Source: Verrucomicrobiota bacterium
GTDB lineage: Bacteria; Verrucomicrobiota; Verrucomicrobiia; Limisphaerales; Palsa-1400
Direction of reading: 5' to 3'
Assembly (NCBI GenBank): GCA_049513975.1
Contig: JBEKVM010000033.1
Location: 3,788-67,787 of the forward strand
Length of the DNA stretch: 64,000 nt
Shown here: in pieces, positions 48,443 through 64,000 of the stretch
How the letters are laid out: each line of letters begins with the position of its first letter
Numbering within the stretch: position 1 is the stretch's first letter
Position numbers and translations under genes: made by a program
Notes under the pieces: model-generated
Databases searched by the model: none
What the model saw: the letters and a program-made list of their open reading frames with translations, nothing else
What the model was told of the DNA's origin: nothing

Positions 48443-48483
48443 GGTTGCGATTGTTCCCGGCCGCTGCCGTCGCCGTCGGCACA

Positions 48484-49893: not shown

Positions 49894-49948
49894 TATTCCG
49901 ATATTCCGATTTTAATTCCGATTTTGCTTGCGTTTAGCACGGAATTCC
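49894..49948 (+). promoter_or_regulatory. Three direct ATTCCGAT repeats plus one inverted CGGAAT/GGAATTCC copy upstream of the first gene of the gvp regulatory operon
   Basis: atattccgatattccgattttaattccgattttgcttgcgtttagcacggaattcc, AT-rich, ending 11 nt before ATG 49959. Confidence 0.35.
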
Positions 49949-49958
49949 TCTATGGTGC

Positions 49959-50669
49959 ATGGTTGGCATGGGCAATGGTGCGCAAATGGAAGGGAACCGC
50001 AGGGCGGGTTTACCTTCAGTGGGTTCGTCCGAGTCGGTGGATTCGAACGTGTCAGGGCGGCGTTTAATTCACATCCCCGTGATTCACAGCCGGGCGGAGA
50101 TGGGCAGCTTCAGTCCAACCATCCAAGCGATCACCGTGCAGAAGCTGGGAAGCAAAGGGTGGGAGCGCAACGTGAACTTGATAGACGGCGTCTGGACGCA
50201 AATTGAGCAGGCGATTGACCGTTGCGACCTGCCCTACGAGAAAGTGCGCCTCTATCAGGATGGCTTGCCGGTGTGCGGGCGGGAACTGGAGATTGTCTCG
50301 GAACTGGCCAAGGCCGGCAGCCGCAACCACCAACTGCTCCTGCGCTTGAGGGAACGGGGCGCCACCCTGATGGGCACCGAATCGGCCGACCTGCTGGTTC
50401 AGGAGTATCATCTGATCAAACAAACCCTGGCGGCCAACGGCCCGGGGCACGCGGCGCGCCGGCAGGCCCGCCAGCAGGAGAGCAGCGGTTGCTTGCTCAA
50501 ACGGCGCGACCAAGCCATCGCGGCGCGGATCAACCACACCCTGTGCCGGGGTGAAATCGGCCTGTTGTTTTTGGGAATGTTGCACTCGCTGGAGGCCTGG
50601 CTGGCTGACGATATCCAGGTCACCCATCCCCTTTTTCCGCCGTCTCCGGGAGGACACCCATGCCCATGA
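49959..50669 (+). CDS. Hypothetical protein, first gene of the gvp-associated regulatory operon
   Basis: 236-aa ORF. I recognise no family. The stop TGA 50667..50669 overlaps ATG 50666 of the NtrC-like gene. Confidence 0.5.
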   Translation: MVGMGNGAQMEGNRRAGLPSVGSSESVDSNVSGRRLIHIPVIHSRAEMGSFSPTIQAITVQKLGSKGWERNVNLIDGVWTQIEQAIDRCDLPYEKVRLYQDGLPVCGRELEIVSELAKAGSRNHQLLLRLRERGATLMGTESADLLVQEYHLIKQTLAANGPGHAARRQARQQESSGCLLKRRDQAIAARINHTLCRGEIGLLFLGMLHSLEAWLADDIQVTHPLFPPSPGGHPCP

Positions 50670-52084
50670 GCAAAGGAAAAAGCCGGGTCCTGATCGTGGA
50701 CGACGAGGAGGCCATCTGCAAGTTGATCTCCCACTTGTTGGAGCAGGAGGGTTTTGTCCCACTGGTGGCGCTGGACGGCAAATCGGCGCTGCAACAACTT
50801 CGCAGCGCGTCGCCGGACATGATGATTGTGGACCTGAAGTTGCCGGACTTTGACGGGCTGGAAATTCTGCGGCAGGCCAAGGCCCTGGATGAGGATCTGC
50901 CGGTGGTGATTTTGACCGCCCATGCCAGAGTCCACGGGGCGGTGGAGGCGATGCGCGCGGACGCCTTCGATTATCTGGCCAAACCTTACGACCATCAGGA
51001 ACTGCTGCGGGTGGTCCACCGCGCCCTGGCCCAACGGCAACTGAGCCTCAAGATCAAGCAACTGGCCGGTCAGACCAGCCCCAGCCATGATCTGACGGAA
51101 ATCATGGGGCCCAGCGAGGCGATCGGACGCCTGATTGGCGACCTGAACTGCGTGGCCAAATCCAACTTCAGCGTCGTCATCATCGGGGAAACCGGCTCGG
51201 GCAAGGAAGTGGTGGCGCAAGCCATTCACGCCAGCGGCCCGCGGGCCAAAAACCCGTTTGTGCCGGTGGATACGGGCGCGATTCCCGACACGCTTTTTGA
51301 GGCGGAATTGTTCGGGCACGAAAAGGGGGCGTTCACGGGCGCGGCCGGTCGCAAGCCGGGCCGCTTTGAACAGGCCAACGGGGGCACGCTCTTCCTGGAT
51401 GAGATTTTGAACATGCCGCTGACCGCGCAGGCCAAAGTGCTCAGGGCGCTGCAAGAAAAGTCCTTTTGCCGGGTCGGGGGCACCCAGCCGATCAAGATTG
51501 ACGTCCGGGTGCTGGCGGCGGCCAACCAGGATTTGGATGCGGCCGTGGCGGCAGGGCGGTTGCGGGCCGACTTGTTCTACCGTTTGAACGAGTTCACGCT
51601 GCGGATTCCGCCGTTGCGCCAGCGCAAGGAGGACTTGCTCTACCTGGCCAAGCGGTTCCTGGATTTGACCAACCAGGAATTGAAAAAAACGGTCCCCGGC
51701 TTTTCCGAGCCAGCCATGCGGGCGCTGCTGGATCACCCGTGGCCGGGGAATGTCCGCCAACTGCGCTCGACCATCCGGCGGGCGGTGCTCCTGGCCGGCG
51801 AGTTGGTGACCGAACAGGATCTGGATATTTTCCAGGACAACCATGAGGCATGGCGGCGCGCGGCCACCCCCGCCAAGGCGCCAGGCGCGTCCCCCCCCGC
51901 GCTTTCGCTCAAGGAAATCGTGGCGCAAAGCAGGACGGTCGTGGAGCGCGAAGTCTTGTTGCGAACTTTGCGTCAAACCGGGGGCAACAAAGCCAGGGCC
52001 GCCCGCCTCCTGCAAGTGGACTACAAGACGATTCAGTCGAAAATCAAACACTATGGGATCAGCCCCAACAAGGAAACATTATGA
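50660..52084 (+). CDS. Sigma-54-dependent response regulator (NtrC family: REC + AAA+ + Fis-type HTH); GvrA-like
   Basis: REC domain RVLIVDDEEAI...MMIVDLKLPDFDG. Walker A GETGSGKE. The sigma-54 contact loop is EKGAFTGA. Walker B LFLDEI. HTH GGNKARAARLLQVDYKTIQSKIKHYGI. An alternative start lies at 50666. Confidence 0.9.
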   Translation: MPMSKGKSRVLIVDDEEAICKLISHLLEQEGFVPLVALDGKSALQQLRSASPDMMIVDLKLPDFDGLEILRQAKALDEDLPVVILTAHARVHGAVEAMRADAFDYLAKPYDHQELLRVVHRALAQRQLSLKIKQLAGQTSPSHDLTEIMGPSEAIGRLIGDLNCVAKSNFSVVIIGETGSGKEVVAQAIHASGPRAKNPFVPVDTGAIPDTLFEAELFGHEKGAFTGAAGRKPGRFEQANGGTLFLDEILNMPLTAQAKVLRALQEKSFCRVGGTQPIKIDVRVLAAANQDLDAAVAAGRLRADLFYRLNEFTLRIPPLRQRKEDLLYLAKRFLDLTNQELKKTVPGFSEPAMRALLDHPWPGNVRQLRSTIRRAVLLAGELVTEQDLDIFQDNHEAWRRAATPAKAPGASPPALSLKEIVAQSRTVVEREVLLRTLRQTGGNKARAARLLQVDYKTIQSKIKHYGISPNKETL

Positions 52085-52602
52085 AGAAAAAGACCACGGA
52101 TAAAAACGAACCCGCGGGCCAAGCCGGCGGCAGTGTCGGCGGCATCCTCTCGGGATTAACCGGTTTGGTGGAAAAGCTCAACGAATTGGCGGAAACGGGC
52201 GGCGAACTGCGGCGCGGCGGCGAGATTCACGGCGCCGGCAAGGGCCTTAAAGGCATCTACGGCTTTACCGTCAAGGTCGGCTTGGGCGACCAGGCGGCGC
52301 GCGTCGAACCGTTCGGCAACATTCACACCGACAAAACAACCGGCCAGGCGGTGGTGGAGGAAATCCGGGAACCGGTGGTGGACCTGTTCGAGGAGAAGAA
52401 CCACCTCCTGATTGTGGCGGAGATGCCGGGGATCGGGGCCGCGGACGTGCGGCTCGAGGTCAAGGACGACGTGCTCACGATGACGGCGGCCAAAGGCGAT
52501 AAAAAGTACCGCAAAGAGGTGCTCTTGCCCGGCAGTTACCCCAAAGAAAAAATGGTCCTCTCCTGCAACAACGGAGTGCTGGAAATCAAGTGCGTCAAAT
52601 GA
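52081..52602 (+). CDS. Hsp20/alpha-crystallin-family small heat-shock protein with Gly-rich N-terminal extension
   Basis: ACD core VDLFEEKNHLLIVAEMPGIGAADVRLEVKDDVLTMTAAKGDKKYRKEVLLPG...NNGVLEIK. ATGA overlap with the NtrC-like gene. Confidence 0.8.
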   Translation: MKKKTTDKNEPAGQAGGSVGGILSGLTGLVEKLNELAETGGELRRGGEIHGAGKGLKGIYGFTVKVGLGDQAARVEPFGNIHTDKTTGQAVVEEIREPVVDLFEEKNHLLIVAEMPGIGAADVRLEVKDDVLTMTAAKGDKKYRKEVLLPGSYPKEKMVLSCNNGVLEIKCVK

Positions 52603-52616
52603 AGGGAGTCTGACCT

Positions 52617-54767
52617 ATGGACAAAACGGAATCCGCGCAACTCAAACTCAAAGTGACCGAGGCCATCGGCAAAGACGTCGGCCGGGCTTTGGCCCGCATC
52701 GGGCCGGAAGATTTGGAGCGGCTGGGGGCCGCCACCGGAGACACCGTCGAAGTCGCCGGCAAACGCGCCACCGTCTGCAAAGTGATGCCGGCCTACAAGG
52801 AACTGCGCGGCCAATCCCGCGTGCAACTCGACGGCCTGACCCGCGAGAACGCCGGCGCCGCCCTCGATGAGTTTGTCCAGGTGCGGAAGATTACCGTGCG
52901 TCCGGCCCAGCGCGTCGGCCTGGCCCCGCTGACCATTGCCCCCGACGGCCGGGACCTGCAATACATCGGCAGCCTGTTGGACGGCTTGCCCGTGCAGGCC
53001 GGGGACCGGATTCGGGCGGCCTTGTTTGGCAGCCGTTCCGCTGATTTCAAGGTGGAAAACACCCTGCCGCGCGGGCCGGTCCTGATTAATCCAACGACCG
53101 ACCTGGTCATCGGCAAAGCGGAGGTCAAGGAGCGCGCCCGCCTGGCAGTGCCCTATGAGGACATCGGCGGCCTCAAGCCGCAACTGCACCGCATCCGGGA
53201 GATGATTGAACTGCCGCTGCGTTATCCGGAGATCTTCGAGCGCCTGGGCATAGACGCGCCCAAAGGCGTGCTCTTGCACGGTCCGCCCGGTTGCGGCAAG
53301 ACGCTCATCGCCCGCGCCATCGCCCATGAAACCGAGGCCCAATTCTTTGCCGTGAGCGGGCCGGAGATCATCCACAAATTCTACGGCGAGAGCGAGGCCC
53401 ATTTGCGCAAGGTCTTCGACGAGGCGACGCGGCAGGGGCCGAGCATCATTTTTCTGGATGAGATAGACGCCATTGCGCCGCGGCGCGAGCAGGTCGCCGG
53501 GGAGGTGGAAAAGCGGGTCGTCGCCCAACTGCTGGCGCTGATGGACGGGTTGAACCAGCGGCAGAATGTCATTGTCATCGGCGCCACCAACATTCCCAAC
53601 GCCTTGGACCCGGCCTTGCGGCGTCCCGGCCGATTTGACCGGGAAATCGCGATTCCGATTCCGGATCGCCGCGGGCGGCTGGACATCCTGGAAATCCACA
53701 GCCGGGGCATGCCCTTGCAGCCGGATGTGGACATGAACCGCCTGGCGGAAATCACGCATGGTTTTGTCGGCGCGGACCTGGAGGCGCTCTGCCGGGAGGC
53801 GGCGATGATTTGCCTGCGGGACATCCTGGCCGACCTGGATTTTTCCCTGGCGAAAATCCCTTACGAGCGTCTGGCCAAACTGGAAGTGCGCCTGGACCAT
53901 TTCCTGACGGCGTTGCGCGAGGTGGAGCCGTCCGCCATCCGGGAGGTGTTTGTCGAAGTGCCCAATGTGCGGTGGAGCGACGTCGGCGGGCTGGCCCCGC
54001 TCAAAGAACGGCTGGTCGAAGCCGTCGAGTGGCCCTTGCGTTACGCCGCGCTCTTTGCGCAAGCGGGCGTCCGCCCGCCCAAGGGCATCCTCCTGTGCGG
54101 TCCCCCGGGCTGCGGCAAGACGCTTTTGGCCAAAGCCATCGCCACCGAAAGCCAGGTCAATTTCATTTCGGTCAAAGGTCCGGCCCTGCTCTCCAAATAT
54201 GTCGGGGAATCGGAGAGGCAGGTGCGCGACATTTTTCGCAAGGCCCGCCAGGCGGCGCCCTGCATCATCTTCTTTGACGAACTGGACGCGGTGATGCCGG
54301 CCCGGGGCGGCGCGGCTTCGGACACGCCGGTGAGCGACCGGGTGCTGAGCCAGTTTCTGGCGGAGTTGGACGGGATCGAAGAACTCAAAGGCGTTTTGGT
54401 GCTGGGCGCCACCAACCGGCTGGATCGTCTGGATCCGGCGGTGCTCCGGCCCGGCCGTTTTGACGAAGTCGTGGAAATCCCGCTCGCGGAGGAACCGGAG
54501 CGGCGCGAGATCTTTGAAGTCCATCTGCGCGGCAAGCCGCTGGCGCGCAACGTCAGAATCAGCGAGCTGGCGGCCAGGAGCGGGGGCTTTAGCGGCGCGC
54601 AAATCGCCTCCGTCTGCAACCGCGCCGCGCTCCGGGCGGTGCGCCGCGCCGTCGCGCTGGCCGAAGGACCGGACACCGCCAAACCCCCGCTGGCAACCCC
54701 GGCCAAGGCGCTCATCGAGCCGGATGACTTGGCGGCCGCGCTGGCGGAAGTTTCTCCCAAGCCATGA
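52617..54767 (+). CDS. Cdc48/VCP-type AAA+ ATPase with N-domain and two AAA modules
   Basis: The N-domain pattern VTEAIGKDVGRALARIGPEDLERLGAATGDTVEVAG is followed by D1 (GPPGCGKTLIARAIAHE, IIFLDEIDAIAP) and D2 (GPPGCGKTLLAKAIATE, IIFFDELDAV). Confidence 0.9.
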   Translation: MDKTESAQLKLKVTEAIGKDVGRALARIGPEDLERLGAATGDTVEVAGKRATVCKVMPAYKELRGQSRVQLDGLTRENAGAALDEFVQVRKITVRPAQRVGLAPLTIAPDGRDLQYIGSLLDGLPVQAGDRIRAALFGSRSADFKVENTLPRGPVLINPTTDLVIGKAEVKERARLAVPYEDIGGLKPQLHRIREMIELPLRYPEIFERLGIDAPKGVLLHGPPGCGKTLIARAIAHETEAQFFAVSGPEIIHKFYGESEAHLRKVFDEATRQGPSIIFLDEIDAIAPRREQVAGEVEKRVVAQLLALMDGLNQRQNVIVIGATNIPNALDPALRRPGRFDREIAIPIPDRRGRLDILEIHSRGMPLQPDVDMNRLAEITHGFVGADLEALCREAAMICLRDILADLDFSLAKIPYERLAKLEVRLDHFLTALREVEPSAIREVFVEVPNVRWSDVGGLAPLKERLVEAVEWPLRYAALFAQAGVRPPKGILLCGPPGCGKTLLAKAIATESQVNFISVKGPALLSKYVGESERQVRDIFRKARQAAPCIIFFDELDAVMPARGGAASDTPVSDRVLSQFLAELDGIEELKGVLVLGATNRLDRLDPAVLRPGRFDEVVEIPLAEEPERREIFEVHLRGKPLARNVRISELAARSGGFSGAQIASVCNRAALRAVRRAVALAEGPDTAKPPLATPAKALIEPDDLAAALAEVSPKP

Positions 54768-55651
54768 ACGCATATTGCAATGAGGTGTTCTACGTTTACG
54801 GGTTCACCCAGGCTGGCCTCGTGCCGGAAGCCGCGGACGCGGCCATCTCTGAAGCGGGGGTTGGCGCCGGCGTTTTCAGCGGCGGCTTGGAGGAACCGCA
54901 CCCTCCATTTTTCCGGCGCAGCGGCCGAGTGGCTGCGGTCGTGAGCCGGGTTTCGCCATCTGAATTCTGCGGTCCAACAGGTGAAAAGAATCTGCAAGAC
55001 GTGGCGTGGCTGGCCCCGCGGGCCTGCCGGCACCAGGCCGTCCTGGAGCAGCTCATGCGCCTGGGCGCGGTGTTGCCGGCGCGGTTCGGGACGCTCTTTT
55101 CCTCGACGGCAAGCCTGGAAAGTTTTATGGGGCGACACGGAGCCGCCATAGGCCGGTTTCTGGAGCGCGTGAGGGGCCAGGAAGAATGGGCGGTGAAGGG
55201 CTTCCTCGACCCCCAGGCGCGCGCGGAGGCGGAATGGCTGGCAGGCCGCCGTGCAGAGCAGCCAGGCCCGTCAGGTTCGTCGCCCGGTCTGGCCTACTTG
55301 CAGGAACAAAGCCTGCGCATCCAGGCCCGGGAGGCCCTGGACGAACGGCTCGCCGGGGTCTGCGGCGACCTCTTGCTCGAGTTGAACCCACTGGCCTCTG
55401 AAATTGTCCCGCGCCGGATTTTGGCCCAGGAAACGTCGGACGCGGCGCGAGAGATGGTGCTCAATTGGGCTTTGCTCTTGCCGTCGGCGGCGGTGGCGGA
55501 TTTTCGCGGCCGGATCGAGCACGCCAACGCGGAACAAAATCGCGGCGGCCTGGCCTTCGAAGTGTCCGGTCCCTGGCCTCCCTACAGTTTCTGTCCGGTC
55601 CTGGAAGCGGAGGCGGCGCGGGAAGAGGCCCTAATGGAGGTAAAACCATGA
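54764..55651 (+). CDS. gvpF: Gas vesicle protein GvpF/GvpL family
   Basis: VFYVYGFTQAG...GRVAAVVSRV...VAWLAPRACRHQAVLEQLMRLGAVLPARFGTLF...EEWAVKGF...GPWPPYSF is the GvpF/L pattern. ATGA overlaps occur at both ends. Confidence 0.85.
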   Translation: MNAYCNEVFYVYGFTQAGLVPEAADAAISEAGVGAGVFSGGLEEPHPPFFRRSGRVAAVVSRVSPSEFCGPTGEKNLQDVAWLAPRACRHQAVLEQLMRLGAVLPARFGTLFSSTASLESFMGRHGAAIGRFLERVRGQEEWAVKGFLDPQARAEAEWLAGRRAEQPGPSGSSPGLAYLQEQSLRIQAREALDERLAGVCGDLLLELNPLASEIVPRRILAQETSDAAREMVLNWALLLPSAAVADFRGRIEHANAEQNRGGLAFEVSGPWPPYSFCPVLEAEAAREEALMEVKP

Positions 55652-57114
55652 GCGCAGATCGTGCGGAGGCGAAGGGCGATGACAGTCTTTACGAAATGCT
55701 GTTGAATGCGATTCCTTCGTCGGTGTTGCTGGTCGGGCGGGATTTGCGCATCACCCTGGCCAACCGGAATTTTTTGGAAAGAAGCCGGCGCACCAGGGAA
55801 GAGACGCTGGACCGGCGATTGCCGGAAGTCTTTCCGCCTGCGATTTTGGATCACACCGAGATTGTTCGGCGCATTCAAAGCGTTTTCGACACCAACAAAC
55901 CAACCACCGGCGAAAGAATCAGCTACCGCGCCCCGGGCGGGCTGATGCGCATTTACTACTACCGCGTCCTCCCCCTGCCCGACCGGGACAATGTGGAGTT
56001 TGCCATCCTGGTGATGGAGGACGTGACGGAACGGGAGCGTTTGAGCGAGGACATCCGCCGCATGGAGCGCCACCTCAGGATCGTGGTGGAGAGCACCAGC
56101 GAAATCATTCTTTCCACCGACACCGAGGGCCGGATTCTCAGTTGGAACCAATCCGCCGAGCAGATTTCCGGCTACACCCCGCAGGAAGTGGAAGGCAGGC
56201 ACTTTTGGGCGTTTTGCGCCCCGGAGCATCAGGCCGGCGTGCGCCGCTCGTTTTCCGAATGGGAAGCGGGCAAAACCCCGCAAAGGCTGGAATGGAATTT
56301 GGTGAGCAAAAGCGCCAAAGCGGTTCCGCTTTCCTGGATCTTTTCCCCCATGATGGACGACCAGGGCCAAACCATCGGCATTGTCGCCGTCGGGCGCAAC
56401 CTGGCGGAAAGCCGCAAGCTGGAAGCCCAACTGCTCCAGGCCCAAAAGCTGGCCGCCCTGGGGGTGATGGCCGGCGGCATTGCCCATGAGTTGCGCAATC
56501 CTCTGGCCATCTGTTCCTCCGCCGCCCAGTTCCTCATGCAGGAGGAAATCACCCCCCAGTTCCGCCGCGAGTGCGCCCAAAAAATGCAACAGGGAATGCA
56601 ACGGGCCTCCGGCATCATTGATCACCTCCTCAAATTCACCCGCCCTTCGCAGCGCGGGGATCGCGTCAAGCTGGACCTCCTGGCCGTCCTCAAAGAAACC
56701 CTGGCCTTGGTGGCCGACCAGGCCAAAATTCAAAACATAGACGTGATCGCTCAACTGCCTGATGCGCCACCCTTCGTTCAGGGCGACGCGCACCTGCTGC
56801 AACAGGTCTTCATGAACCTGTTTTTGAACGCCATCCACGCCATGCCCACCGGCGGCCAACTCAGGGTCCTCGTCGCAACCGCCCCCCATCAGGTTTCTGT
56901 CCAGGTGGCCGACACCGGCCACGGCATCGCCGCGGCGGACCTGGCAAACATCTTTGATCCGTTCTGGTCCGAGTCCAACGGCAGAAAAGGCACCGGCTTG
57001 GGCCTGCCCCTTTGCTACGCCATTGTCCAACAGCACGCCGGCTCCATTGAGGTGGAAAGTGCGCCGGGACAAGGCAGCGTCTTCACCGTGCGCTTGGGCC
57101 TGAGCCAGAACTGA
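55648..57114 (+). CDS. Cytoplasmic PAS-PAS histidine kinase; GvrB-like
   Basis: No TM segment. There are two PAS-like regions. H-box HELRNPLAICSSA, N-box QQVFMNLFLNAIHAM, G1 DTGHGI, G2 GTGLGLPLC. Confidence 0.9.
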   Translation: MSADRAEAKGDDSLYEMLLNAIPSSVLLVGRDLRITLANRNFLERSRRTREETLDRRLPEVFPPAILDHTEIVRRIQSVFDTNKPTTGERISYRAPGGLMRIYYYRVLPLPDRDNVEFAILVMEDVTERERLSEDIRRMERHLRIVVESTSEIILSTDTEGRILSWNQSAEQISGYTPQEVEGRHFWAFCAPEHQAGVRRSFSEWEAGKTPQRLEWNLVSKSAKAVPLSWIFSPMMDDQGQTIGIVAVGRNLAESRKLEAQLLQAQKLAALGVMAGGIAHELRNPLAICSSAAQFLMQEEITPQFRRECAQKMQQGMQRASGIIDHLLKFTRPSQRGDRVKLDLLAVLKETLALVADQAKIQNIDVIAQLPDAPPFVQGDAHLLQQVFMNLFLNAIHAMPTGGQLRVLVATAPHQVSVQVADTGHGIAAADLANIFDPFWSESNGRKGTGLGLPLCYAIVQQHAGSIEVESAPGQGSVFTVRLGLSQN

Positions 57115-57130
57115 TCCCTCAACCGGTGCG

Positions 57131-57598
57131 ATGAACCACGAATACCTCATTGTGGATGACGAGCCGGACCTCTGCTGGGCCTTGGAGAATCTTTTGTCCT
57201 CCAAAGGGCTGCCTTGTCAAAAAGCCCAGACCGCCCAGGCGGCTCTGGACTTGATGAAGGCTCACCGCTTCCAACTGGCCTTCCTCGATGTCACCCTGCC
57301 GGATATGAACGGACTGGAGTTGGCCAGGCGTTTGCGCAATTTGGACCCCTTTCTGCGCGTCGTCATCGTCTCCGGTTACCTTTCCAAGGAAGCGGCGGCC
57401 ATGGCCCAGGCCCAGGCCGAAGGACTGATTTGCGCCTGCATCAACAAGCCTTTCCTGCATGAAGAAATCCTCCGCGTCATCCAGGATTTGGCGCCGGCGG
57501 ACCGGGCGCGGCGGGGAGGAATCGCCCCGCCACTAGGGAGCGCCGGCCAGGGAACTAATTCCCCAAAGGTTCCCGGGCGGCCCGTTGCTCAATCTTAA
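57131..57598 (+). CDS. Single-domain CheY-like response regulator; GvrC-like
   Basis: YLIVDDEPDL...AFLDVTLPDMNG...VVIVSG...INKPF is the REC domain. The last ~25 codons read through the conserved upstream-activator block of the gvpA promoter. Confidence 0.85.
   Translation: MNHEYLIVDDEPDLCWALENLLSSKGLPCQKAQTAQAALDLMKAHRFQLAFLDVTLPDMNGLELARRLRNLDPFLRVVIVSGYLSKEAAAMAQAQAEGLICACINKPFLHEEILRVIQDLAPADRARRGGIAPPLGSAGQGTNSPKVPGRPVAQS
57521..57567 (+). promoter_or_regulatory. Candidate enhancer/UAS for the NtrC-like activator (47-bp block containing AGGGAA-N4-TTCCCC), copy A
   Basis: 41 of 47 nt are identical to 60955..61001. The inverted repeat centre lies ~106 bp upstream of the -24 element at 57662. 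Confidence 0.6.
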
Positions 57599-57660
57599 AA
57601 CCGCCGGCCAGCCCGGTGCCGGCGGCGGCAAGGCCATCGGGCCGCCTCCTCCCCAAGCCC

Positions 57661-57676
57661 TGGCATGACTTATGCA
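57661..57676 (+). promoter_or_regulatory. Sigma-54 (-24/-12) promoter of gvpA: TGGCATGACTTATGCA
   Basis: GG (57662-3) and GC (57674-5) are separated by exactly 10 nt, matching the TGGCAC-N5-TTGCW consensus. It lies 77 nt upstream of the gvpA ATG. A paralogous copy lies before gvpN. Confidence 0.7.
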
Positions 57677-57752
57677 CCAGTTCGCGGCGAGAACGATTCC
57701 AGGTGTTCTGGAAGGATCATGAGTAAGGGAAACATTAAAAACAAAAACGAAT

Positions 57753-57971
57753 ATGGCAAAAGTCACAAAATCAACAGACTCCTCGAGTCTGGCAGAAGTG
57801 GTGGATCGAATTCTTGACAAGGGCATCGTCATTGATGTTTGGGCCAAGGTTTCACTGGTCGGAATCGAACTGGTTTCCATTGAAGCCCGCGTCGTCATCG
57901 CTTCAGTCGAGACCTACTTGAAGTACGCCGAGGCCATCGGCCTGACGGCGACCGCGGCAGCCCCCGCCTAA
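57753..57971 (+). CDS. gvpA: Gas vesicle structural protein GvpA
   Basis: [64 protein letters not shown] is an almost canonical GvpA sequence (72 aa). Confidence 0.95.
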
Positions 57972-57996
57972 ACCGGGAGGGGCCAGCCGGCGTCGG

Positions 57997-58021
57997 GCGG
58001 GGAATGGAATCCATTCTCCGC
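57997..58021 (+). terminator. 11-bp stem / 3-nt loop hairpin just downstream of gvpA (no U-tract); candidate attenuator or mRNA-stabilising structure
   Basis: gcggggaatgg-aat-ccattctccgc forms 10 Watson-Crick pairs plus one G-U. Confidence 0.35.
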
Positions 58022-58070
58022 CTGACCCAACGGCGCCACCAGAAATCCTCAAACCAGGAAAGGTTTTTCC

Positions 58071-58478
58071 ATGAGCAGTAATTTATCCAATGACATGACG
58101 CGGTTGTGCGGCCAGATCGCCGCCTGGCGCAGCATCCGCGCGGATTTGATGAGCAACCTCGCGGAGACCCGCGCGCAAACGCAGGCGGCGGTCAGCCAGA
58201 TGCTGGCCGGCTTCGGCGAGGCCCGATCCGAAATGGCCCAACAAACCAAGGTCGAACTGGGCGGATTTGTCGGCCGCGTCAAGGAAGCGGTGACCGGGCT
58301 GCGGCAAACCGTCGCCCAGTTGCAGGATGACTTCAGGGAGGACCTCGCGGGCGCCCACCGGGCCTGGCATGGCGCCAGCGCCGGGCCTGGGTCCGCGCCA
58401 ACCGCCGCAAAGCCGTCCTTTCGGGCCGAGGAACCCTCCGGCGAGCTGGCCCCCAAAGCGAGAAAGAAGAAACGGTAG
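58071..58478 (+). CDS. Hypothetical coiled-coil protein immediately downstream of gvpA; candidate GvpC-like shell-associated protein
   Basis: 135 aa, predicted helical, Arg/Gln/Ala-rich (IRADLMSNLAETRAQTQAAVSQMLAGFGEARSEMAQQTKVELGGFVGRVKEAVTGLRQTVAQLQDDF), with a basic tail KARKKKR. Position is the main argument for the call. Confidence 0.45.
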   Translation: MSSNLSNDMTRLCGQIAAWRSIRADLMSNLAETRAQTQAAVSQMLAGFGEARSEMAQQTKVELGGFVGRVKEAVTGLRQTVAQLQDDFREDLAGAHRAWHGASAGPGSAPTAAKPSFRAEEPSGELAPKARKKKR

Positions 58479-58488
58479 GACCAGCGGG

Positions 58489-58519: not shown

Positions 58520-58552
58520 ATCCAGACATTTTGGCCTCAATGACCGGCTTCT

Positions 58553-58642
58553 ATGGGTAGCATGGGTGGCATGGGTGGCATGGGTGGCATGGGTAGCATG
58601 GGTGGCAAGGGTTGCATGGGTGGCAAGGGTGGCATGGGTGGG
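58553..58642 (+). repeat. Tandem array of ten 9-bp units (consensus ATGGGTGGC)
   Basis: atgggtagc atgggtggc x3 atgggtagc atgggtggc aagggttgc atgggtggc aagggtggc atgggtggg. The + strand is G-rich, and the array is in frame with a possible 42-codon ORF 58553..58681 (MGS MGG MGG ...). Confidence 0.9.
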
Positions 58643-58729
58643 CGCCGCACCACAGCGGCAAAGGGACTAATCGGTCATTGAGGCCGTTCTCACCAGGAGC
58701 GATTGGCCGCCCAACCGATGAGACACCTG

Positions 58730-58823
58730 ATACCGTTTCCAGTTCGTAACTGCACTATTGCCAAGGCGATTGGCGGCGGTCGCAGACCGCCGCTACAGTG
58801 CAAAAGCAAAGTGGAAACGGTAT
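58730..58823. repeat. 94-nt structured element: perfect 12-bp inverted repeat (ataccgtttcca / tggaaacggtat) enclosing a REP-type hairpin
   Basis: Read directly. The inner hairpin is gcggcggt-cgcag-accgccgc followed by tacag, belonging to the REP family at 4444, 5278 and 24979. Confidence 0.55.
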
Positions 58824-59022
58824 GACTCCATTCTGTAAACAAGAGCTTGGCGGCCGAGCAAGAACTCAATGAAGAAAACCTGGGGCAAAAACGTTTCATT
58901 TCTTGACACACCCCTGGATCCCCCGCCCTTTCATTATCAATGAGGAGGCGGCCTCTGAATAATGTTCGTCACCGCGCTCCTGATTCGTTCCTTTGCCAAA
59001 TGCGTTCCTGCCAGACTCAGAT

Positions 59023-59040
59023 GATTGTCATCTGACAATC
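59023..59040. promoter_or_regulatory. Perfect 18-bp palindrome GATTGTCA-TC-TGACAATC; candidate operator
   Basis: Read directly in the AT-rich spacer ~200 bp upstream of the phosphoesterase gene. Confidence 0.35.
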
Positions 59041-59082
59041 TGGCATTTTCATTTAAGCCGTTTCCAATTGCACTTTCAGGAC

Positions 59083-59100
59083 CTGTCACCGGGCTGTAAC
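59083..59100 (+). promoter_or_regulatory. Pho-box-like direct repeat CTGTCAC-N4-CTGTAAC
   Basis: The 11-bp periodicity and sequence match the enterobacterial PhoB box CTGTCAT-N4-CTGTCAC. It lies ~140 bp upstream of a phosphoesterase gene. Transferability of this consensus to this phylum is unknown. Confidence 0.3.
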
Positions 59101-59241
59101 TCGACCGCCATTTCCGTGACCGAATTATTACAATCGTCACGTTGACCCGCGCGGAACGGGTGTGGTTAAGTGGGCGCGCTTATACGGCAAGTTAATGGCC
59201 AGTATAAGAAAACAAAATTGCACATGAGAAAAGAGTTACCT

Positions 59242-60825
59242 ATGAAGACAAAAATGCACATCAATCGGCTAAACAGCACAAACAGCACAAACAGCACAGT
59301 GAGAGTCTCCGGTCGGCGTCCCGGCAGGCTCGGGCGCAAAACCGCGCTGATCGGCGCCACCGCAACGGCCCTTCTGCTCGCCGCCCATCTGGCCCGGGCG
59401 GGCGATGACCGTGACCGGACGCAAGCAGGCGCCATCTTCGTGATCGCTCTGGAGAATCACAACTTGACCCAGCCCACCCCGGCTTCCAGTCCGCAGCAAA
59501 TTCTCGGCAATCCGGCTGCTCCCTTTATCAACAGCCTCATGACGCCGGGCAATGCGAATGCGGCGCAGGTTTCGTATGCCGCGGCCTACTACAACGACGG
59601 CATCGGCGTCCATCCCTCCGAGCCTAACTATGTCTGGGCCGAAGCCGGGACGGATTTTGGGTTTCACTCCGATGCCGACCCCAGCCCCGCCAATGGCAAC
59701 AAGTTCTATGATAACTCACCCCATCTCATCAGCCATTTGACTGCAAATGGCAACACCTTGATGTTTTGGCATCGTAACGATTCACCTCATCTCACCGGGC
59801 AATTGAACGCGGCCGGCATCCCGTGGAAAAACTACCAGGAAGACGTTGAACTGAGCGCAAGCCCGACTAACAGCGCCTCGGGCACCGGCGGCCCGGTCAA
59901 TCCCTACAACGGCACCACCCAATATAATTACGCCGTCAAACACAACCCCATGGCCTTCTTCAGCGACAGCGCCCTCCTGAATGTCTATCCGCTCGCCCAG
60001 CTCTTCCTGGACCTCGACGCCGGCGCGGTCGGGCGCTACAACTGGATCACGCCCGATCAATATAACGAAGCCCATAGCGCGCTCAACGGCGGCTTCACCT
60101 ATCAGGGCATCCATTATACCGGCGACCAGTCCGCCATTGCCGCAGCCGACAACTTCCTCGCCACCGTCGTCCCGCAAATCATGGCGTCGAAGGCCTACCT
60201 GGACAATGGGGTCATTATCCTTTGGTGGGATGAAACTGAAGGCGGTGACAGCACCGCCTTCACCCTTCCTGAGATCATTATCTCGCCTCTGGCCAAGGGC
60301 AACGCCTACGCCAGCACCGTGCCCATGAACCATTCCTCCGACCTCAAAACCATGGAGGAGATTTTCGGCCTGCCAGCGGTCAACAATCCCATCCCGCTGA
60401 CTGAGACCAACGCCGGCGGCGATTTCAACTACGTCGCTACCGTCAATGACCTGAGCGACCTGTTCCTGCCCGGGACGATCCCCGCTCCTCTGAACTTGGC
60501 GGTGACGGGCGACAGTTTCGTGATGGACCGCCATACGGGACAGGTTTCGCAGAGGGTGCTTATCACCAACAACGGCGACACTCCGGCCCACGCCCCCTTG
60601 TTCCTCGTGCTGGACAGCCTCAGCGCCAATGCCACGCTGCTCAATTCGGACGGAACGACGGCGCTTCTTGCCCCCCTCGGCAGCCCCTATGTCAGAGTTC
60701 ACCTCGGCGACCACGACGTCCTGCGTCCCCATGATACCGCAAGGGTGACGTTGGAGTTCCTCGACCCGAGCGGCGATGCCATAGCGTACAACGCGCGCGT
60801 GCTTAATGTCACGCCGGCGCCTTGA
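59242..60825 (+). CDS. Secreted phosphoesterase-family protein (phospholipase C / acid phosphatase AcpA-like)
   Basis: FVIALENHN...GVHPSEPNYVWAEAGT...VKHNPMAFF...WWDETEGGD are the phosphoesterase-family blocks. The N-terminus carries an NST x3 repeat (9-bp aacagcaca x3 at 59272..59298). The start is uncertain (59224 or 59242). Confidence 0.75.
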   Translation: MKTKMHINRLNSTNSTNSTVRVSGRRPGRLGRKTALIGATATALLLAAHLARAGDDRDRTQAGAIFVIALENHNLTQPTPASSPQQILGNPAAPFINSLMTPGNANAAQVSYAAAYYNDGIGVHPSEPNYVWAEAGTDFGFHSDADPSPANGNKFYDNSPHLISHLTANGNTLMFWHRNDSPHLTGQLNAAGIPWKNYQEDVELSASPTNSASGTGGPVNPYNGTTQYNYAVKHNPMAFFSDSALLNVYPLAQLFLDLDAGAVGRYNWITPDQYNEAHSALNGGFTYQGIHYTGDQSAIAAADNFLATVVPQIMASKAYLDNGVIILWWDETEGGDSTAFTLPEIIISPLAKGNAYASTVPMNHSSDLKTMEEIFGLPAVNNPIPLTETNAGGDFNYVATVNDLSDLFLPGTIPAPLNLAVTGDSFVMDRHTGQVSQRVLITNNGDTPAHAPLFLVLDSLSANATLLNSDGTTALLAPLGSPYVRVHLGDHDVLRPHDTARVTLEFLDPSGDAIAYNARVLNVTPAP

Positions 60826-60954
60826 GCCGGTCGCCTTGCCAGGACTTGGGCGATATTGTCGGGATTCTTCACGGGGGCCGGCCTTGAGCCGGCCCCCCTT
60901 TGCTTTTTCGCCGGACTGTTAACCCCCCCTGACAACTCCGGGGAACCGGGGAGG

Positions 60955-61001
60955 ATCGTCCCGCCAATAGGGAGCGCGGGCCAGGGAACCCATTCCCTAA
61001 A
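60955..61001 (+). promoter_or_regulatory. Candidate enhancer/UAS for the NtrC-like activator (AGGGAA-N4-TTCCCT), copy B
   Basis: 41/47 identity with 57521..57567. The inverted repeat centre lies ~103 bp upstream of the -24 element at 61093. Confidence 0.6.
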
Positions 61002-61091
61002 TCCTGCCGGCAGGCCGTCTCCGAATCCAAAAAACGGGGGCAACGCCCGGTGAACAGGACGGCCAGCTCACGGCGGCAACTGCTGCCCGCG

Positions 61092-61107
61092 CATGGCATG
61101 GCTTATG
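61092..61107 (+). promoter_or_regulatory. Sigma-54 (-24/-12) promoter of the gvpN operon: TGGCATGGCTTATGCA
   Basis: GG (61093-4) and GC (61105-6) are separated by 10 nt. The 63 nt from here to ATGAG (61154+) are ~90% identical to the gvpA promoter/leader. Confidence 0.7.
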
Positions 61108-61189
61108 CAGAAGTTCCCGGCGAGAACGATTCCAAGTGTTCTGGAAGGATCATGAGCGGGCAAAACAATGATAACAATTGCGTTTCGGC

Positions 61190-62233
61190 ATGAATGTTCG
61201 TAACTCCAAAGCGCCCGGAAGCGAAAGGGCGGAAACCGCCTCCGACACCTTTTTGCCCGAACCCAGCAATGGATTTGTCACGACGCCCTTTGTGGAGCAG
61301 ATCGCCAGGCGGGCCTTGACCTATTTGCAGGCCGGCTATCCCATCCATTTCGCCGGCGCCGCCGGCACCGGCAAGACCACCGTGGCCTTTCATGTCGCCG
61401 CGCAACTGGGCCGGCCCGTCTCGCTCATCCACGGGGACGATGACTTCGGCAGTTCGGACCTCGTCGGGCAGGACAGCGGCTACCGCAAGCACAAGGTCAT
61501 TGACAACTACATCCATTCGGTGGTCAAAACCGAGGAGGAGATGAAATCCCTCTGGCTGGAGAACCGCCTCACCACCGCCTGCCAGGACGGGGACACGCTG
61601 ATCTACGACGAATTCAACCGCTCGCGGCCTGAAGCCAACAATCCCTTCTTGAGCATTTTTTCCGAACGGATCCTCAACCTCCCCAAGCTGCGCCGCTCCG
61701 GCGGCGGCTACTTGCACGTGCATCCGCAATTCCACGCCATTTTCACCTCCAATCCGGAAGAATACGCGGGCGTCCATAAGACCCAGGACGCTTTGATGGA
61801 CCGCTTGATTACCATTCAACTGGAACACTACGACCGGGAGACGGAGATTGAGATCACCATTGCCCGCTCCGGCATCGGCCGGGCCGACGCCGAAATCATC
61901 GTGGACCTGGTGCGCCAGCTCCGGCGCGTCGGCGTGAGCAACAGCCGCCCGACCATCCGCGCCTGCATCGCCATCGCCCGCGTCCTGACTTTGCGCGGCG
62001 TGCATGCCCAGCCGGAGGATTCCATTTTCCAATGGGCCTGCCGGGATGTCCTCAGTTCGGAAACGGCCAAGGTGACTCGCGACGGCCGCTCCATCATGCC
62101 CCAGAAGGTGGAGGAAGCGTTGCTCGCCGGGCTGCGCGCCAACGCCCCCGCCATCCCGCCCATTTCCACCGGCCCGCGCCCGCGCCAGGCCACCAAGAAA
62201 GGAAACGGCGAATGCCTCCTCCAACACGAATGA
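61190..62233 (+). CDS. gvpN: Gas vesicle AAA+ ATPase GvpN
   Basis: FVEQIARRALTYLQAGYPIHFAGAAGTGKTTVAFHVAAQLGRP (Walker A), LIYDEFNRS (Walker B) and MDRLITI match the GvpN/CbbQ-like layout. ATG 61190 was preferred over TTG 61178. Confidence 0.9.
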   Translation: MNVRNSKAPGSERAETASDTFLPEPSNGFVTTPFVEQIARRALTYLQAGYPIHFAGAAGTGKTTVAFHVAAQLGRPVSLIHGDDDFGSSDLVGQDSGYRKHKVIDNYIHSVVKTEEEMKSLWLENRLTTACQDGDTLIYDEFNRSRPEANNPFLSIFSERILNLPKLRRSGGGYLHVHPQFHAIFTSNPEEYAGVHKTQDALMDRLITIQLEHYDRETEIEITIARSGIGRADAEIIVDLVRQLRRVGVSNSRPTIRACIAIARVLTLRGVHAQPEDSIFQWACRDVLSSETAKVTRDGRSIMPQKVEEALLAGLRANAPAIPPISTGPRPRQATKKGNGECLLQHE

Positions 62234-62547
62234 TTCGCGGCGTCAAAGACATCCGCACCCGTTCCGGCACGCCGGACCAGGTGATCGTCCCTTACAAGGC
62301 CTACATGGCCATCACCGCCCTGGAGATGGAAAAATTCCGGCGCGAAACGGAACGCGACAATCTCAGGCTCCGCTTGGACAACGTCAACACCCGCCTCCAG
62401 ACGGTGGCCTCGGAAAAAGCCGCCCTGTTGCAGCGCCTGGGCAAGGAAGCGCCCGACCGGCCCGCCCGGCGGCCGATCAAATCCTCCCGGCCAATCCGGG
62501 ATGGCTCCGCGGCGGGCCATGCCGGCGGATTCAAATTCCAGTATTGA
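62212..62547 (+). CDS. Small coiled-coil gas-vesicle accessory protein, possibly GvpV-like
   Basis: MPPPTRMIRGVKDIRTRSGTPDQVIVPYKAYMAITALEMEKFRRETERDNLRLRLDNVNTRLQ. The start overlaps the gvpN 3' end by 22 nt. Its position after gvpN matches gvpV in some clusters. The family call is from memory only. Confidence 0.45.
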   Translation: MPPPTRMIRGVKDIRTRSGTPDQVIVPYKAYMAITALEMEKFRRETERDNLRLRLDNVNTRLQTVASEKAALLQRLGKEAPDRPARRPIKSSRPIRDGSAAGHAGGFKFQY

Positions 62548-62571
62548 CCCTTTCGCCACGGAGTCAGAGCT

Positions 62572-63351
62572 ATGAACACGACTTCCGAATCCGGCCCGCC
62601 CCAAAGCGGAGAATACCTGTATGCCATCGCCGCCCTCGGCAAGGACCGCAGCTACGATGTGGCGGGCATTGACGGCGCCGCCGTGTATAGTGTCCACCAG
62701 GGCCGCGTGGCGGCGGTCGTGAGCGATTGCGCCCGCCAAAAACTGCGCCCGGAACGCGCCCACTTGGCGGCGCACAAAGAAGTCCTCGAGCGGCTGATGC
62801 TGGACAGCACAATCCTGCCGATGGCCTTCGGCACTATTGCCGGCGATGTGAAAGCGGTCCGGCGGCTGCTGGCGCTCAACCAGGAAGTCATTTTGGAACA
62901 ACTGGAGCGCGTCGCCGGCAAGGTCGAGATGGGCCTGCGCGTGAAGTGGGATGTGCCCAATATCTTCGAGTATTTCATTGATATTCACCCCGAACTGCGC
63001 GTCTTGCGCGACCGTTTGCTGGGCAACCAGCGCGAACCCCGCCAGGAGGACCGGATCGAACTGGGGCAACTGTTCGACCGCATCCTCAACGAGGACCGCG
63101 AAGCCCATTCTGAGAAGCTGGAGGAGGCGCTGGCGCCCTGTTGCGCCGAAATCAAGCGGTCGCCGCTGCGCAATGTCAACGAGGTGGCCAATCTCAATTG
63201 CCTGGCCGGACGCAACGAGCAAATGCAACTGGAAGGGGCGGTTTTCCAGGCCGCCCACCTGTTTGACAACAACTACGCCTTCGATCTGAACGGGCCGTGG
63301 GCGCCGCACAATTTCGTCGAGATGGACCTCAAACTCAACGGCCAAACGTGA
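62572..63351 (+). CDS. gvpF: Gas vesicle protein GvpF/GvpL family (second paralogue)
   Basis: YLYAIAAL...GRVAAVVSDC...LAAHKEVLERLMLDSTILPMAFGTI...EMGLRVKW...LNGPWAPHNF. Confidence 0.9.
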   Translation: MNTTSESGPPQSGEYLYAIAALGKDRSYDVAGIDGAAVYSVHQGRVAAVVSDCARQKLRPERAHLAAHKEVLERLMLDSTILPMAFGTIAGDVKAVRRLLALNQEVILEQLERVAGKVEMGLRVKWDVPNIFEYFIDIHPELRVLRDRLLGNQREPRQEDRIELGQLFDRILNEDREAHSEKLEEALAPCCAEIKRSPLRNVNEVANLNCLAGRNEQMQLEGAVFQAAHLFDNNYAFDLNGPWAPHNFVEMDLKLNGQT

Positions 63352-63364
63352 AGCGGTTTACCCC

Positions 63365-63622
63365 ATGTTCCTCCTGGACAAACTCCTTTTCTTTCCTGTC
63401 GGCGCCACCGTTTGGGCGGCCCGCCAGGTCCATCACGCCATCCAACAAGAACGAGCGGCGGAACCGGAGCGCATTACCGCCGACTTGAGCGAGCTTTACA
63501 TGATGCTGGAAACAGGCCGGCTTGCCGAAGCCGAATTTAACGCTCGCGAGAAAGAGCTGCTCGACCGGTTGGACTTGATTCAGGAGCGGGAAAAGGACTC
63601 CAACCGGACGAGTTCCAGATGA
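63365..63622 (+). CDS. gvpG: Gas vesicle protein GvpG
   Basis: MFLLDKLLFFPVGATVWAARQVHHAIQQE...ITADLSELYMMLETGRLAEAEFNAREKELLDRL is the typical GvpG sequence. Confidence 0.85.
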   Translation: MFLLDKLLFFPVGATVWAARQVHHAIQQERAAEPERITADLSELYMMLETGRLAEAEFNAREKELLDRLDLIQEREKDSNRTSSR

Positions 63623-64000
63623 GCGCGCCGACACCATCCTTCCTGGCGGACCAAGGGCTCAGACTCCTGCTCTTCGGCGGCAAGGGCGGAGTGGGAAAAA
63701 CCTCTTGTGCCACGGCGACCGCGCTGCAACTGGCCAGAGACTCTCCCGAAGCCGCCTTTCTTCTGGTATCCACGGATCCGGCCCACTCGGTGATGGACAG
63801 CCTGGCCGGAGCCATGCCGCCGCCCAACTTGCAGGTCACCGAACTGGACGCCCAGGCCTGCCTGGCCGCCTTCAAAGCCCGGCACGGCTCCAAGCTCTGC
63901 GCCATTGCCTCGCGGGGGACCTTTCTCGACCACTCCGACATCAGCCACTTTCTGGCTCTTTCCCTTCCGGGGTTGGACGAACTGATGGCTTCGCTGGAAA
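63619..64000 (+). CDS. ArsA/GET3-family P-loop ATPase (5' part; continues past the right window edge)
   Basis: MSAPTPSFLADQGLRLLLFGGKGGVGKTSCATATALQLA...LLVSTDPAHS is the deviant Walker A plus DPAHS motif of ArsA/Get3. ATGA overlap with gvpG. It is absent from the ORF track because no stop lies in the window. Confidence 0.8.
   Translation, partial: MSAPTPSFLADQGLRLLLFGGKGGVGKTSCATATALQLARDSPEAAFLLVSTDPAHSVMDSLAGAMPPPNLQVTELDAQACLAAFKARHGSKLCAIASRGTFLDHSDISHFLALSLPGLDELMASLE

Follow-up and report, generated by a model that had tools for sequence, protein, structure and literature searches.

A Serratia-type gas-vesicle gene cluster, probably from a Verrucomicrobiota bacterium of peat, with a phosphoesterase gene inserted ahead of gvpN and a duplicated sigma-54-type control cassette

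The genes that lie beyond about 49.9 kb in the 64,000-nucleotide (nt) window analyzed here (the whole stretch of contig JBEKVM010000033.1 under study), together with those that follow on the source contig, very probably constitute a complete and apparently intact gas-vesicle cluster of the proteobacterial Serratia ('gvr') type, which appears to be organized as three transcription units. The identities, order and overlaps of the genes, their conservation across loci, one insertion and one duplication were observed directly. The cluster type itself is already known; the only unusual points here are a foreign gene inserted in the cluster and a putative promoter copy behind the inserted gene.

Gene content and order

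The plus-strand open reading frames (ORFs) of 49.9-64.0 kb were translated and scanned against the Pfam and NCBIfam profile hidden Markov models (HMMs), and all cluster features given below are on that strand. These searches support the assignments that a preliminary description of the DNA had made (GvpA, GvpN, two GvpF/L proteins, GvpG, an NtrC-type regulator, a PAS-domain kinase, a CheY-like receiver, Cdc48, a small heat-shock protein and an ArsA-type ATPase). That naming was mostly right, except that the small heat-shock protein is GvpH, that the ArsA-type protein is nearer to Get3/ARSA1 than to ArsA of Escherichia coli, and that gvpV and a gene for a protein of 135 amino acids (aa) had been left unnamed.

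The first unit is preceded by a sigma-70-like promoter found by a promoter scan (49766-49793) and begins with a conserved 236-aa hypothetical protein (hyp236; 49959-50669) that belongs to no Pfam or NCBIfam family. It continues with gvrA (50666-52084), an NtrC-type sigma-54 enhancer-binding response regulator with REC, Sigma54_activat (216 bits), AAA_lid_14 and HTH_8 domains, of which the GAFTGA motif at residue 223, the Walker A motif GETGSGKE and the receiver aspartate in DLKLPD are intact. The next three genes are gvpH (52081-52602), a small heat-shock protein of the alpha-crystallin kind (Pfam GvpH, 27.1 bits against a cut-off of 22; HSP20, 24.8 bits), gvpZ (52617-54767), a CDC48/VAT-type double-ring AAA+ ATPase (TIGR01243, 875 bits against a cut-off of 803), and a gvpF paralogue of the F2/F3 type (54764-55651; PF06386, 170 bits). 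Two regulatory genes complete the operon: gvrB (55648-57114), a soluble PAS-PAS histidine kinase (PAS_4, PAS_9, HisKA, HATPase_c) with an intact H-box HELRNPL and a PAS domain at the very N-terminus, so that no membrane anchor is apparent from its sequence, and gvrC (57131-57598), a CheY-like receiver with the single domain Response_reg and its aspartate in DVTLPD.

The second unit comprises gvpA (57753-57971; NF006874, 131 bits against a cut-off of 100; PF00741), whose product is 86-95% identical to GvpA proteins of many phyla, and the gene of the 135-aa helical protein (58071-58478), which occupies the position of gvpC and matches no gas-vesicle family. The third unit includes gvpN, an AAA+ protein gene (61190-62233; TIGR02640, 345 bits against a cut-off of 267); the 105-aa gene gvpV (62230-62547), recognized by its position after gvpN, its ATGA overlap and the C-terminus GF[KR]I[KR]Y; a GvpF/L gene of the gvpF1 type (62572-63351; PF06386, 209 bits); gvpG (63365-63622; PF05120, 57.7 bits); and a gene for a two-domain ArsA/Get3-type ATPase (63619-64000, cut by the end of the window; ArsA_ATPase and TIGR00345; 648 aa on the contig).

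The preliminary description had reported ATGA stop/start overlaps at 50666, 52081, 54764 (gvpZ/gvpF) and 55648 and had deduced that regulators and assembly factors are translationally coupled. All four overlaps are exact and the deduction holds; three more, at 62230 (gvpN/gvpV), at 63619 (gvpG/arsA) and between arsA and the next gene, whose ATG overlaps the arsA stop (ATGCGTGA), bring the total in the cluster to seven. The same description had presumed that genes of the gvpJ/K/S type lie past 64 kb, and they do. The source contig (JGI 3300037843 Ga0427918_0000587, 85 kb; locus L001), identified through an identity look-up of the second GvpF, extends beyond the window, and its arsA gene is followed by a 209-aa gvpJ/S-gvpK fusion (PF00741 and PF05121) and by a 110-aa GvpJ-like protein gene (PF00741), after which unrelated GH116, Memo/AMMECR1 and spermine synthase genes mark the end of the cluster. 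With this extension counted, the core set of gas-vesicle genes is complete.

The 135-aa protein has only a weak, apolipoprotein-like match in Pfam/NCBIfam, and homologues of it follow gvpA, at times in tandem, in 22 of the 80 loci defined below. Its identification as GvpC was considered and rejected, as it has no PF01304 match and its termini are unlike the GvpC termini encoded by Serratia primers. Directly 3' of the gvpA stop is a very stable 16-bp hairpin (about 57992-58027), the stem of which is kept in a related locus (L090); the intergenic segment folds at -49 kcal/mol (z = -4.2, with 0/200 shuffles as stable) and has no T-tract. The hairpin may be a transcript-stabilizing or attenuating element that sets the ratio of gvpA to downstream transcript. 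A different kind of element lies 3' of the 135-aa gene, at 58533-58685, where a perfect 14-bp inverted repeat (GGCCTCAATGACCG / CGGTCATTGAGGCC) is conserved in L090 and encloses about ten tandem copies of the 9-bp unit ATGGGTGGC (58553-58648) that are absent from L090; as RNA, this element is no more stable than its shuffles (z = -0.55). Tandem repeats also occur outside the window, between the last gvp gene and the GH116 gene, where a unit of about 23 nt (CAGACCAGAGCATTTTCAGCAAG) is present in four copies (L001 14230-14330, about 66.8 kb on the contig). An Rfam search of the window gave no match.

Correspondence to the Serratia operons

The regulator operon of Serratia has been described as gvrA-gvpH-gvpZ-gvpF2/3-gvrB-gvrC; GvrA, GvrB and GvrC are each required for expression of gvpA1, upstream of which there is a sigma-54 site, and GvpZ was termed a protein of unknown function (Tashiro 2016, PMC4982088). 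The order in the window and its extension, hyp-NtrC-GvpH-Cdc48-GvpF-kinase-CheY followed by gvpA-...-gvpN-gvpV-gvpF-gvpG-...-(A-like+K)-(A-like), is collinear with both Serratia operons (PMC4982088, PMC9501494). The preliminary description had likened the NtrC/kinase/CheY trio to Serratia gvrA/B/C, and the regulator trio is indeed the same (PMC4982088).

Serratia was not among the 80 relatives listed for the window Cdc48, which were closer ones, nor among those for a Cdc48 of Pseudomonadota (L058) used as a second seed, for which Rhodoferax, Nitrotoga and Litorivivens were among the matches listed; the link to Serratia GvpZ was for this reason made through the peptides encoded by the primers of Table S3 (PMC4982088), which also served for GvpV. 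Primer gvpZ_3F encodes VRWEDVG, a motif of the D1/D2 linker that reads VRWSDVGG at residue 461 in the window protein and VRWEDVGG in nine fetched loci, and this 20-nt primer has 2 nt mismatches to the homologous site in a Halochromatium locus (L063). Primers gvpZ_3R and gvpF2F give a gvpZ end of ...AEMFGDDA-stop with an ATGA overlap onto gvpF2, which resembles the ...QEMLGKDDTA of a Desulfobaccales Cdc48 (L007). Primer gvpV_3F encodes ...LRIKY-stop, in agreement with the GF[KR]I[KR]Y C-terminus of the 105-aa family at 62230-62547. Because these peptides match and the genes occupy the same positions, Serratia GvpZ is read as a Cdc48-type ATPase and the 105-aa gene as gvpV.

Putative sigma-54 control cassettes

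Two similar control cassettes precede gvpA and gvpN. Cassette 1 (57550-57752) consists of a palindrome (GGGAACTAATTCCC, 57550-57563), a putative sigma-54 -24/-12 site (TGGCATGACTTATGCA, 57661-57676, 92 nt before the gvpA ATG) and a leader; cassette 2 (60984-61189), its duplicate, lies just behind the insertion and before gvpN, with its palindrome (GGGAACCCATTCCC) at 60984-60997 and its sigma-54 site (TGGCATGGCTTATGCA) at 61094-61109, 96 nt before the gvpN ATG. On the plus strand of the window, TGGCATGACTTATGCA and TGGCATGGCTTATGCA are the only sequences that score at least 10/12 against the sigma-54 consensus, and they open an 84-nt direct repeat (57661-57744 and 61094-61177) of 85% identity. 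The palindromes, of the form GGGAA-N4-TTCCC and about 110 nt upstream of each sigma-54 site, are the only two in 64 kb, compared to a mean of 0.22 in shuffled sequence. The combination of palindrome, -24/-12 site and leader (TTCCAG-N5-CTGGAA) is conserved in five aligned regions, including those upstream of gvpA in two relatives (L090 and L091). Across phyla, 20 of the 31 loci with the NtrC gene have a sigma-54-like site in the 150 nt before gvpA (observed positions -66 to -119), compared to 3 of the 16 loci without that gene (Fisher p = 0.005, uncorrected for phylogeny and truncated loci).

The following model is proposed for the three units, in which the biochemical activities, the sensed signal and the function of the promoters are predictions. 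Unit 1 (hyp236-gvrA-gvpH-gvpZ-gvpF-gvrB-gvrC) would be transcribed, probably from the sigma-70-type promoter, and translated with tight ATGA coupling. The soluble GvrB would sense an intracellular cue and phosphorylate the receiver of GvrA, a process in which the single-domain GvrC would also take part; GvrA would bind GGGAA-N4-TTCCC about 110 nt upstream and activate sigma-54 RNA polymerase. Unit 2 (gvpA and the 135-aa gene) would be transcribed from cassette 1, and unit 3 (gvpN-gvpV-gvpF-gvpG-arsA-gvpJ/S::gvpK-gvpJ) from cassette 2. Support for the GvrA/sigma-54 part of this model comes from Serratia, since GvrA, GvrB and GvrC are needed there for gvpA1 with its sigma-54 promoter (PMC4982088). 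GGGAA-N4-TTCCC is a candidate GvrA site that is open to direct test.

The leaders themselves (57677-57752 and 61110-61189) carry TTCCAG-N5-CTGGAA and then a GGA-rich stretch, CTGGAAGGATCATGAG. A hairpin in the leader RNA is not supported, as the leader palindrome folds no better than shuffled sequence (z about 0); the palindrome and the GGA-rich stretch could be a DNA site or a GGA target of the CsrA/RsmA type. Sigma-54-like matches on the minus strand at 17295, 17430 and 35508 lie in coding-like sequence (CTGGCGCAGTTTTTGCAG) and were treated as chance occurrences. A third copy of the cassette was found in L090 (21750-21977), ahead of a gene for a 2925-aa protein with Ig/cadherin/MBG repeats directly after the gas-vesicle cluster, which suggests that the predicted GvrA regulon extends beyond the gvp genes; if so, the cassette before this adhesin-like gene would tie the control of buoyancy to surface properties.

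The phosphoesterase insertion

A non-gvp insertion between gvpA and gvpN had been noticed in the preliminary description, and it is real. This lineage-specific insertion (about 58690-60968), between the 135-aa gene and gvpN, encodes a 527-aa phosphoesterase of Pfam family PF04185 (59242-60825) that is probably secreted, to judge from its signal-peptide-like N-terminus. Two signals come with it as well: a sigma-70-like promoter (58934-58963) and, at 60873-60897, a terminator-like hairpin of ten G-C pairs followed by a T-rich tail, the strongest of its kind in the region. No homologue of the phosphoesterase was found in the 80 other loci. In L090, the Cdc48 of which is 91% identical, there is no phosphoesterase, the distance from the 135-aa gene to gvpN is 180 nt, and no sigma-54 site precedes gvpN.

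In the proposed history, which is the simplest reading, the insertion with its terminator would have interrupted an ancestral gvpA-...-gvpN transcript; the gvpN operon would now be driven by a copied enhancer-promoter-leader cassette, taken over in full, and cassette 2 probably restores expression of this operon after the insertion. Were the contig chimeric, the insertion and the promoter duplication could both be assembly artefacts, and it is true that the data are from a metagenome assembly and that assemblers can be led astray by repeats, of which the 84-nt duplication is one. This explanation is extremely improbable: four independent JGI metagenome assemblies (L001-L004) place the phosphoesterase between the 135-aa gene and gvpN, with 97-100% protein identity, and the copies of the cassette, only 85% identical, are too divergent for a collapse or a mis-join.

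An explanation that deserves somewhat more credit, but is still unlikely, is that the locus is a decaying remnant in which the phosphoesterase insertion broke the gvpA-gvpN operon, so that gas vesicles are made no longer. In its favour are the insertion with a strong terminator between gvpA/135-aa gene and gvpN, and a close relative (L089) in which the two halves of the cluster have lost their linkage and the NtrC gene is split. Decay is difficult to reconcile, however, with genes that are all intact ORFs with their catalytic motifs, with the retention of seven stop/start overlaps, with a full copy of the control cassette ahead of gvpN, and with the recovery of the same arrangement from four separate metagenomes. 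The insertion together with the cassette duplication offers a clean natural example of a split operon that has survived. Further features that distinguish this lineage are the fusion of a GvpA-like protein with GvpK, shared with Verrucomicrobiota relatives and a few other loci, and the single GvpF in the regulator operon. The fusion is present in L013, L026, L041, L079, L090 and L091, which are Verrucomicrobiota relatives and a few loci from Thermoleophilia, Desulfovibrionaceae and Terriglobia; most loci have two separate genes.

Distribution, mobility and host

The loci of the 80 best relatives of the window Cdc48 (one genome per species, 57-92% identity) were compared, their contents being determined by tblastn with all 17 cluster proteins. 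They span more than 15 phyla, with Verrucomicrobiota, Desulfobacterota, Acidobacteriota, Calditrichota, Thermoleophilia, Rokubacteria, Lentisphaerota, Sumerlaeota, Planctomycetota, Chromatiaceae, Parachlamydiaceae, Chloroflexota and Firmicutes among the taxa. Genes of gas vesicles adjoin Cdc48 in 78 of the 80, the two exceptions being short contigs; GvpH adjoins it in 69, and a homologue of hyp236 is upstream of NtrC/GvpH in 54. The complete gene order recurs in many loci, including five (L007, L034, L039, L072 and L083) in metagenome-assembled genomes (MAGs) of Desulfobaccales, Acidobacteriota and Lentisphaerota, for L007 by Pfam gene calls, and is found in Desulfobacterota, Acidobacteriota, Lentisphaerota, Planctomycetota, Chromatiaceae and others as well as in Verrucomicrobiota relatives. 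Psychromonas ingrahamii and Desulfomonile tiedjei also have the gvr operon first (Tashiro 2016, PMC4982088). The combination of Cdc48, small heat-shock protein and NtrC circuit is therefore what a widely distributed cluster type normally contains, and does not set this genome apart. The preliminary description had regarded the coupling to Cdc48 and a small heat-shock protein as an architecture not yet described, a view that does not survive the Serratia gvpH-gvpZ pair, the 78 loci and the publication in 2010 of gas-vesicle clusters with ArsA and Hsp20 (PMC2963123).

These counts also bear on the idea that the NtrC, small heat-shock, Cdc48, kinase and CheY genes form a stress-response module of their own, next to the gvp genes only by position. 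It is true that Cdc48, small heat-shock proteins and two-component systems serve generally in stress responses and regulation, and that in L089 no gvpA operon adjoins the module. Within the module, however, there is a gvpF gene that overlaps both neighbours; the small heat-shock protein matches Pfam GvpH; the association with gvp genes holds across more than 15 phyla; and the homologous operon of Serratia controls gvpA1 (PMC4982088). A separate stress module is thus very improbable, and the operon is better read as the regulatory and chaperone part of the gas-vesicle cluster.

The host is probably a member of the Verrucomicrobiota living in peat. The nearest Cdc48 proteins (75-95% identity) are from Verrucomicrobiota MAGs, with Deltaproteobacteria already appearing by about 77%; the best match among species representatives is 'Verrucomicrobiota bacterium SPRUCE 585' (92%), and the named NCBI relatives at 79-84% are Verrucomicrobia MAGs. 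The 50 kb upstream have content like that of the Planctomycetes-Verrucomicrobia-Chlamydiae (PVC) group: a fusion of M56 peptidase and secretin, TPR/transglutaminase proteins, a sulfotransferase and several PQQ-type propellers. The PVC background that had been suggested for this DNA is accordingly plausible given these named relatives; the idea that it makes the cluster exceptional fares less well, as such loci are not rare in public data, though no paper discussing a PVC case was found. Among the upstream genes, the 1176-aa ORF at 864-4394 (+) joins a BlaR1-type M56 peptidase with a C-terminal secretin domain, an unusual pairing, and three consecutive genes for PQQ/BamB-like beta-propeller proteins (557, 779 and 466 aa; 43757-49884, minus strand) lie directly upstream of the gas-vesicle locus and diverge from it.

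The genes of the cluster are clearly mobile, as judged from a Cdc48 that is 77% identical across phyla, a hyp236 match in Terracidiphilus and the placement of the operon in other flanks in L089. In that locus (ENA ERZ25039540 contig_7199, 1.44 Mb; Cdc48 94% identical) the regulator/chaperone operon (7365-14862) has 89% nucleotide identity to positions 50003-57481 of the window; its flanks are different, its NtrC gene is broken into two ORFs, and downstream are genes for an IS110 transposase and for a large LVIVD protein.

Several observations weigh against a complete Serratia-type cluster in a Verrucomicrobiota host. There is no gvpA operon within 7 kb of the operon in L089, so that the two halves of the cluster can separate. 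The taxonomy by named relatives relies on cluster genes, which are prone to transfer, and one hyp236 homologue (79% identity) is labelled Terracidiphilus. Deletions of gvpH and gvpZ in Serratia still make vesicles, which renders the chaperone genes accessory. The bare sigma-54 consensus is not over-represented in the whole window (8 matches compared to 5.25 expected), and because of this count the sigma-54 promoter assignments depend on position, duplication and conservation. Finally, inspection of the ten largest other ORFs of the window did not reveal rpoN. On balance, the Serratia-type cluster is best regarded as a widely transferred module that is also present in Verrucomicrobiota-like bacteria of peat, a result that is mostly confirmatory.

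Chaperone-like accessory proteins

The Cdc48 protein has CDC48_N (PF02359), CDC48_2 (PF02933) and two AAA (PF00004) domains, with two sets of Walker A/B motifs and intact aromatic pore loops (KFYG and KYVG), and its closest solved structure is VAT of Thermoplasma (5g4f, 706 bits). An HbYX motif is not present at the C-terminus, which fits a stand-alone unfoldase rather than a partner of the proteasome. The ArsA-type protein scores 352 bits against TIGR00345 (GET3/ArsA/TRC40; cut-off 135) and 141 bits against the ArsA equivalog TIGR04291, below the cut-off of 650, and no ars genes are nearby. Its closest solved structures are ARSA1 of Chlamydomonas and archaeal Get3, ahead of E. coli ArsA. It has two GKGGVGKT P-loops and one CxxC motif in each half, kept in 18/20 and 17/20 homologues, respectively, and similar to the zinc site of Get3. 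The hyp236 protein has 2044 homologues, all unnamed, and 19 of 30 weakly match PF01963 (TraB_PrgY_gumN; best E 1.5e-5); a Foldseek search with its AlphaFold2 model (pLDDT 79.8) returned no significant match, the sub-threshold ones being ChaN (2g5g; best TM-score 0.36) and RRSP. It is a candidate for a distant TraB/PrgY/GumN-like protein.

Together, these proteins may assist the hydrophobic shell proteins, maintaining their solubility and recycling those that have misassembled, as is suggested by their homologies and by the finding that gvpH and gvpZ, dispensable in Serratia, matter in E. coli. GvpH would be a holdase for the very hydrophobic proteins of the GvpA family, the Cdc48/VAT-like GvpZ an unfoldase that acts on them, and the Get3-like ArsA a carrier of hydrophobic clients. 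A broader proposal, which is tentative and falls somewhat short of probable, is that a gas-vesicle-dedicated Cdc48/VAT clade, GvpH, the Get3-like ArsA and the TraB-like protein together form a conserved system, present in more than 15 bacterial phyla, for the proteostasis and insertion of shell proteins, and that the cassette of palindrome, sigma-54 site and leader is portable and was copied here to rescue the gvpN operon. None of the papers searched names GvpZ as Cdc48 or treats GvpZ, GvpH, ArsA and TraB-like proteins as one system; a literature search on Cdc48 and gas vesicles yielded nothing on bacterial clusters, and the supplements of Hurt 2023 contain no annotation of gvpZ. When clusters are transferred to E. 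coli for use as acoustic reporter genes, such genes influence the yield of vesicles (PMC10344784), and reading GvpZ as a Cdc48/VAT unfoldase and 'ArsA' as a Get3-like chaperone would give these yield genes testable roles.

Comparison with known systems

The cluster shares with that of Serratia the regulator trio of NtrC-like GvrA, PAS kinase GvrB and CheY-like GvrC in one operon, the placement of gvpH-gvpZ-gvpF between gvrA and gvrB, a sigma-54 site (putative here) upstream of gvpA, the order gvpN-gvpV-gvpF-gvpG with genes for a GvpA-like protein, GvpK and a second GvpA-like protein after it, and ATGA-type overlaps, which the Serratia primers also show for gvpF2/F3 and gvpZ/gvpF2. It differs in that the regulator operon precedes the other genes and shares their strand, with one GvpF instead of F2 and F3; that ArsA/Get3 is in the position of gvpW; that the A2-like gene and gvpK are fused; that the gene after gvpA is not gvpC by sequence; that a phosphoesterase insertion and a second sigma-54 cassette are present; and that no link to quorum sensing is evident in the cluster. 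No candidates for gvpX and gvpY were recognized in it; GvpC, gvpW, gvpX and gvpY are reported to be non-essential or variable (PMC4982088, PMC9501494).

The clusters of Desulfomonile tiedjei and Psychromonas ingrahamii and the loci L007, L034, L039, L072 and L083 share the order hyp-gvrA-gvpH-cdc48-gvpF-gvrB-gvrC-gvpA-...-gvpN-gvpV-gvpF-gvpG-arsA-gvpK/J with the cluster studied here, at identities of 70-77% for Cdc48 and 90-95% for GvpA. These MAG loci and those of Desulfomonile and Psychromonas differ from the window in having no phosphoesterase, mostly two GvpF genes after Cdc48, and a gvpK that is mostly separate from the GvpA-like gene. The haloarchaeal clusters (gvpACNO / gvpDEFGHIJKLM) have the core genes gvpA, F/L, G, H, J, K and N in common with the window, but are regulated by GvpD/GvpE rather than by sigma-54 and an NtrC-type protein, and contain neither Cdc48 nor ArsA.

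For the accessory proteins, Castillo & Saier 2010 (PMC2963123) reported two-domain ArsA homologues and Hsp20 encoded in gas-vesicle clusters; these ArsA proteins are likewise internally duplicated, about 640 aa long, without ars genes and beside gvpF/G/J/K and Hsp20. An unspecified energizing role was proposed for them, whereas the ArsA of the window scores nearer to the tail-anchor chaperones Get3 and ARSA1 and has a Get3-like CxxC in each half. The archaeal VAT/Cdc48 unfoldases share with the window GvpZ an N domain, the D1 and D2 rings and aromatic pore loops in both rings; the window protein differs from them in having no HbYX motif for docking to the 20S proteasome, in its bacterial host, and in belonging to a clade that is tied to gas-vesicle loci.

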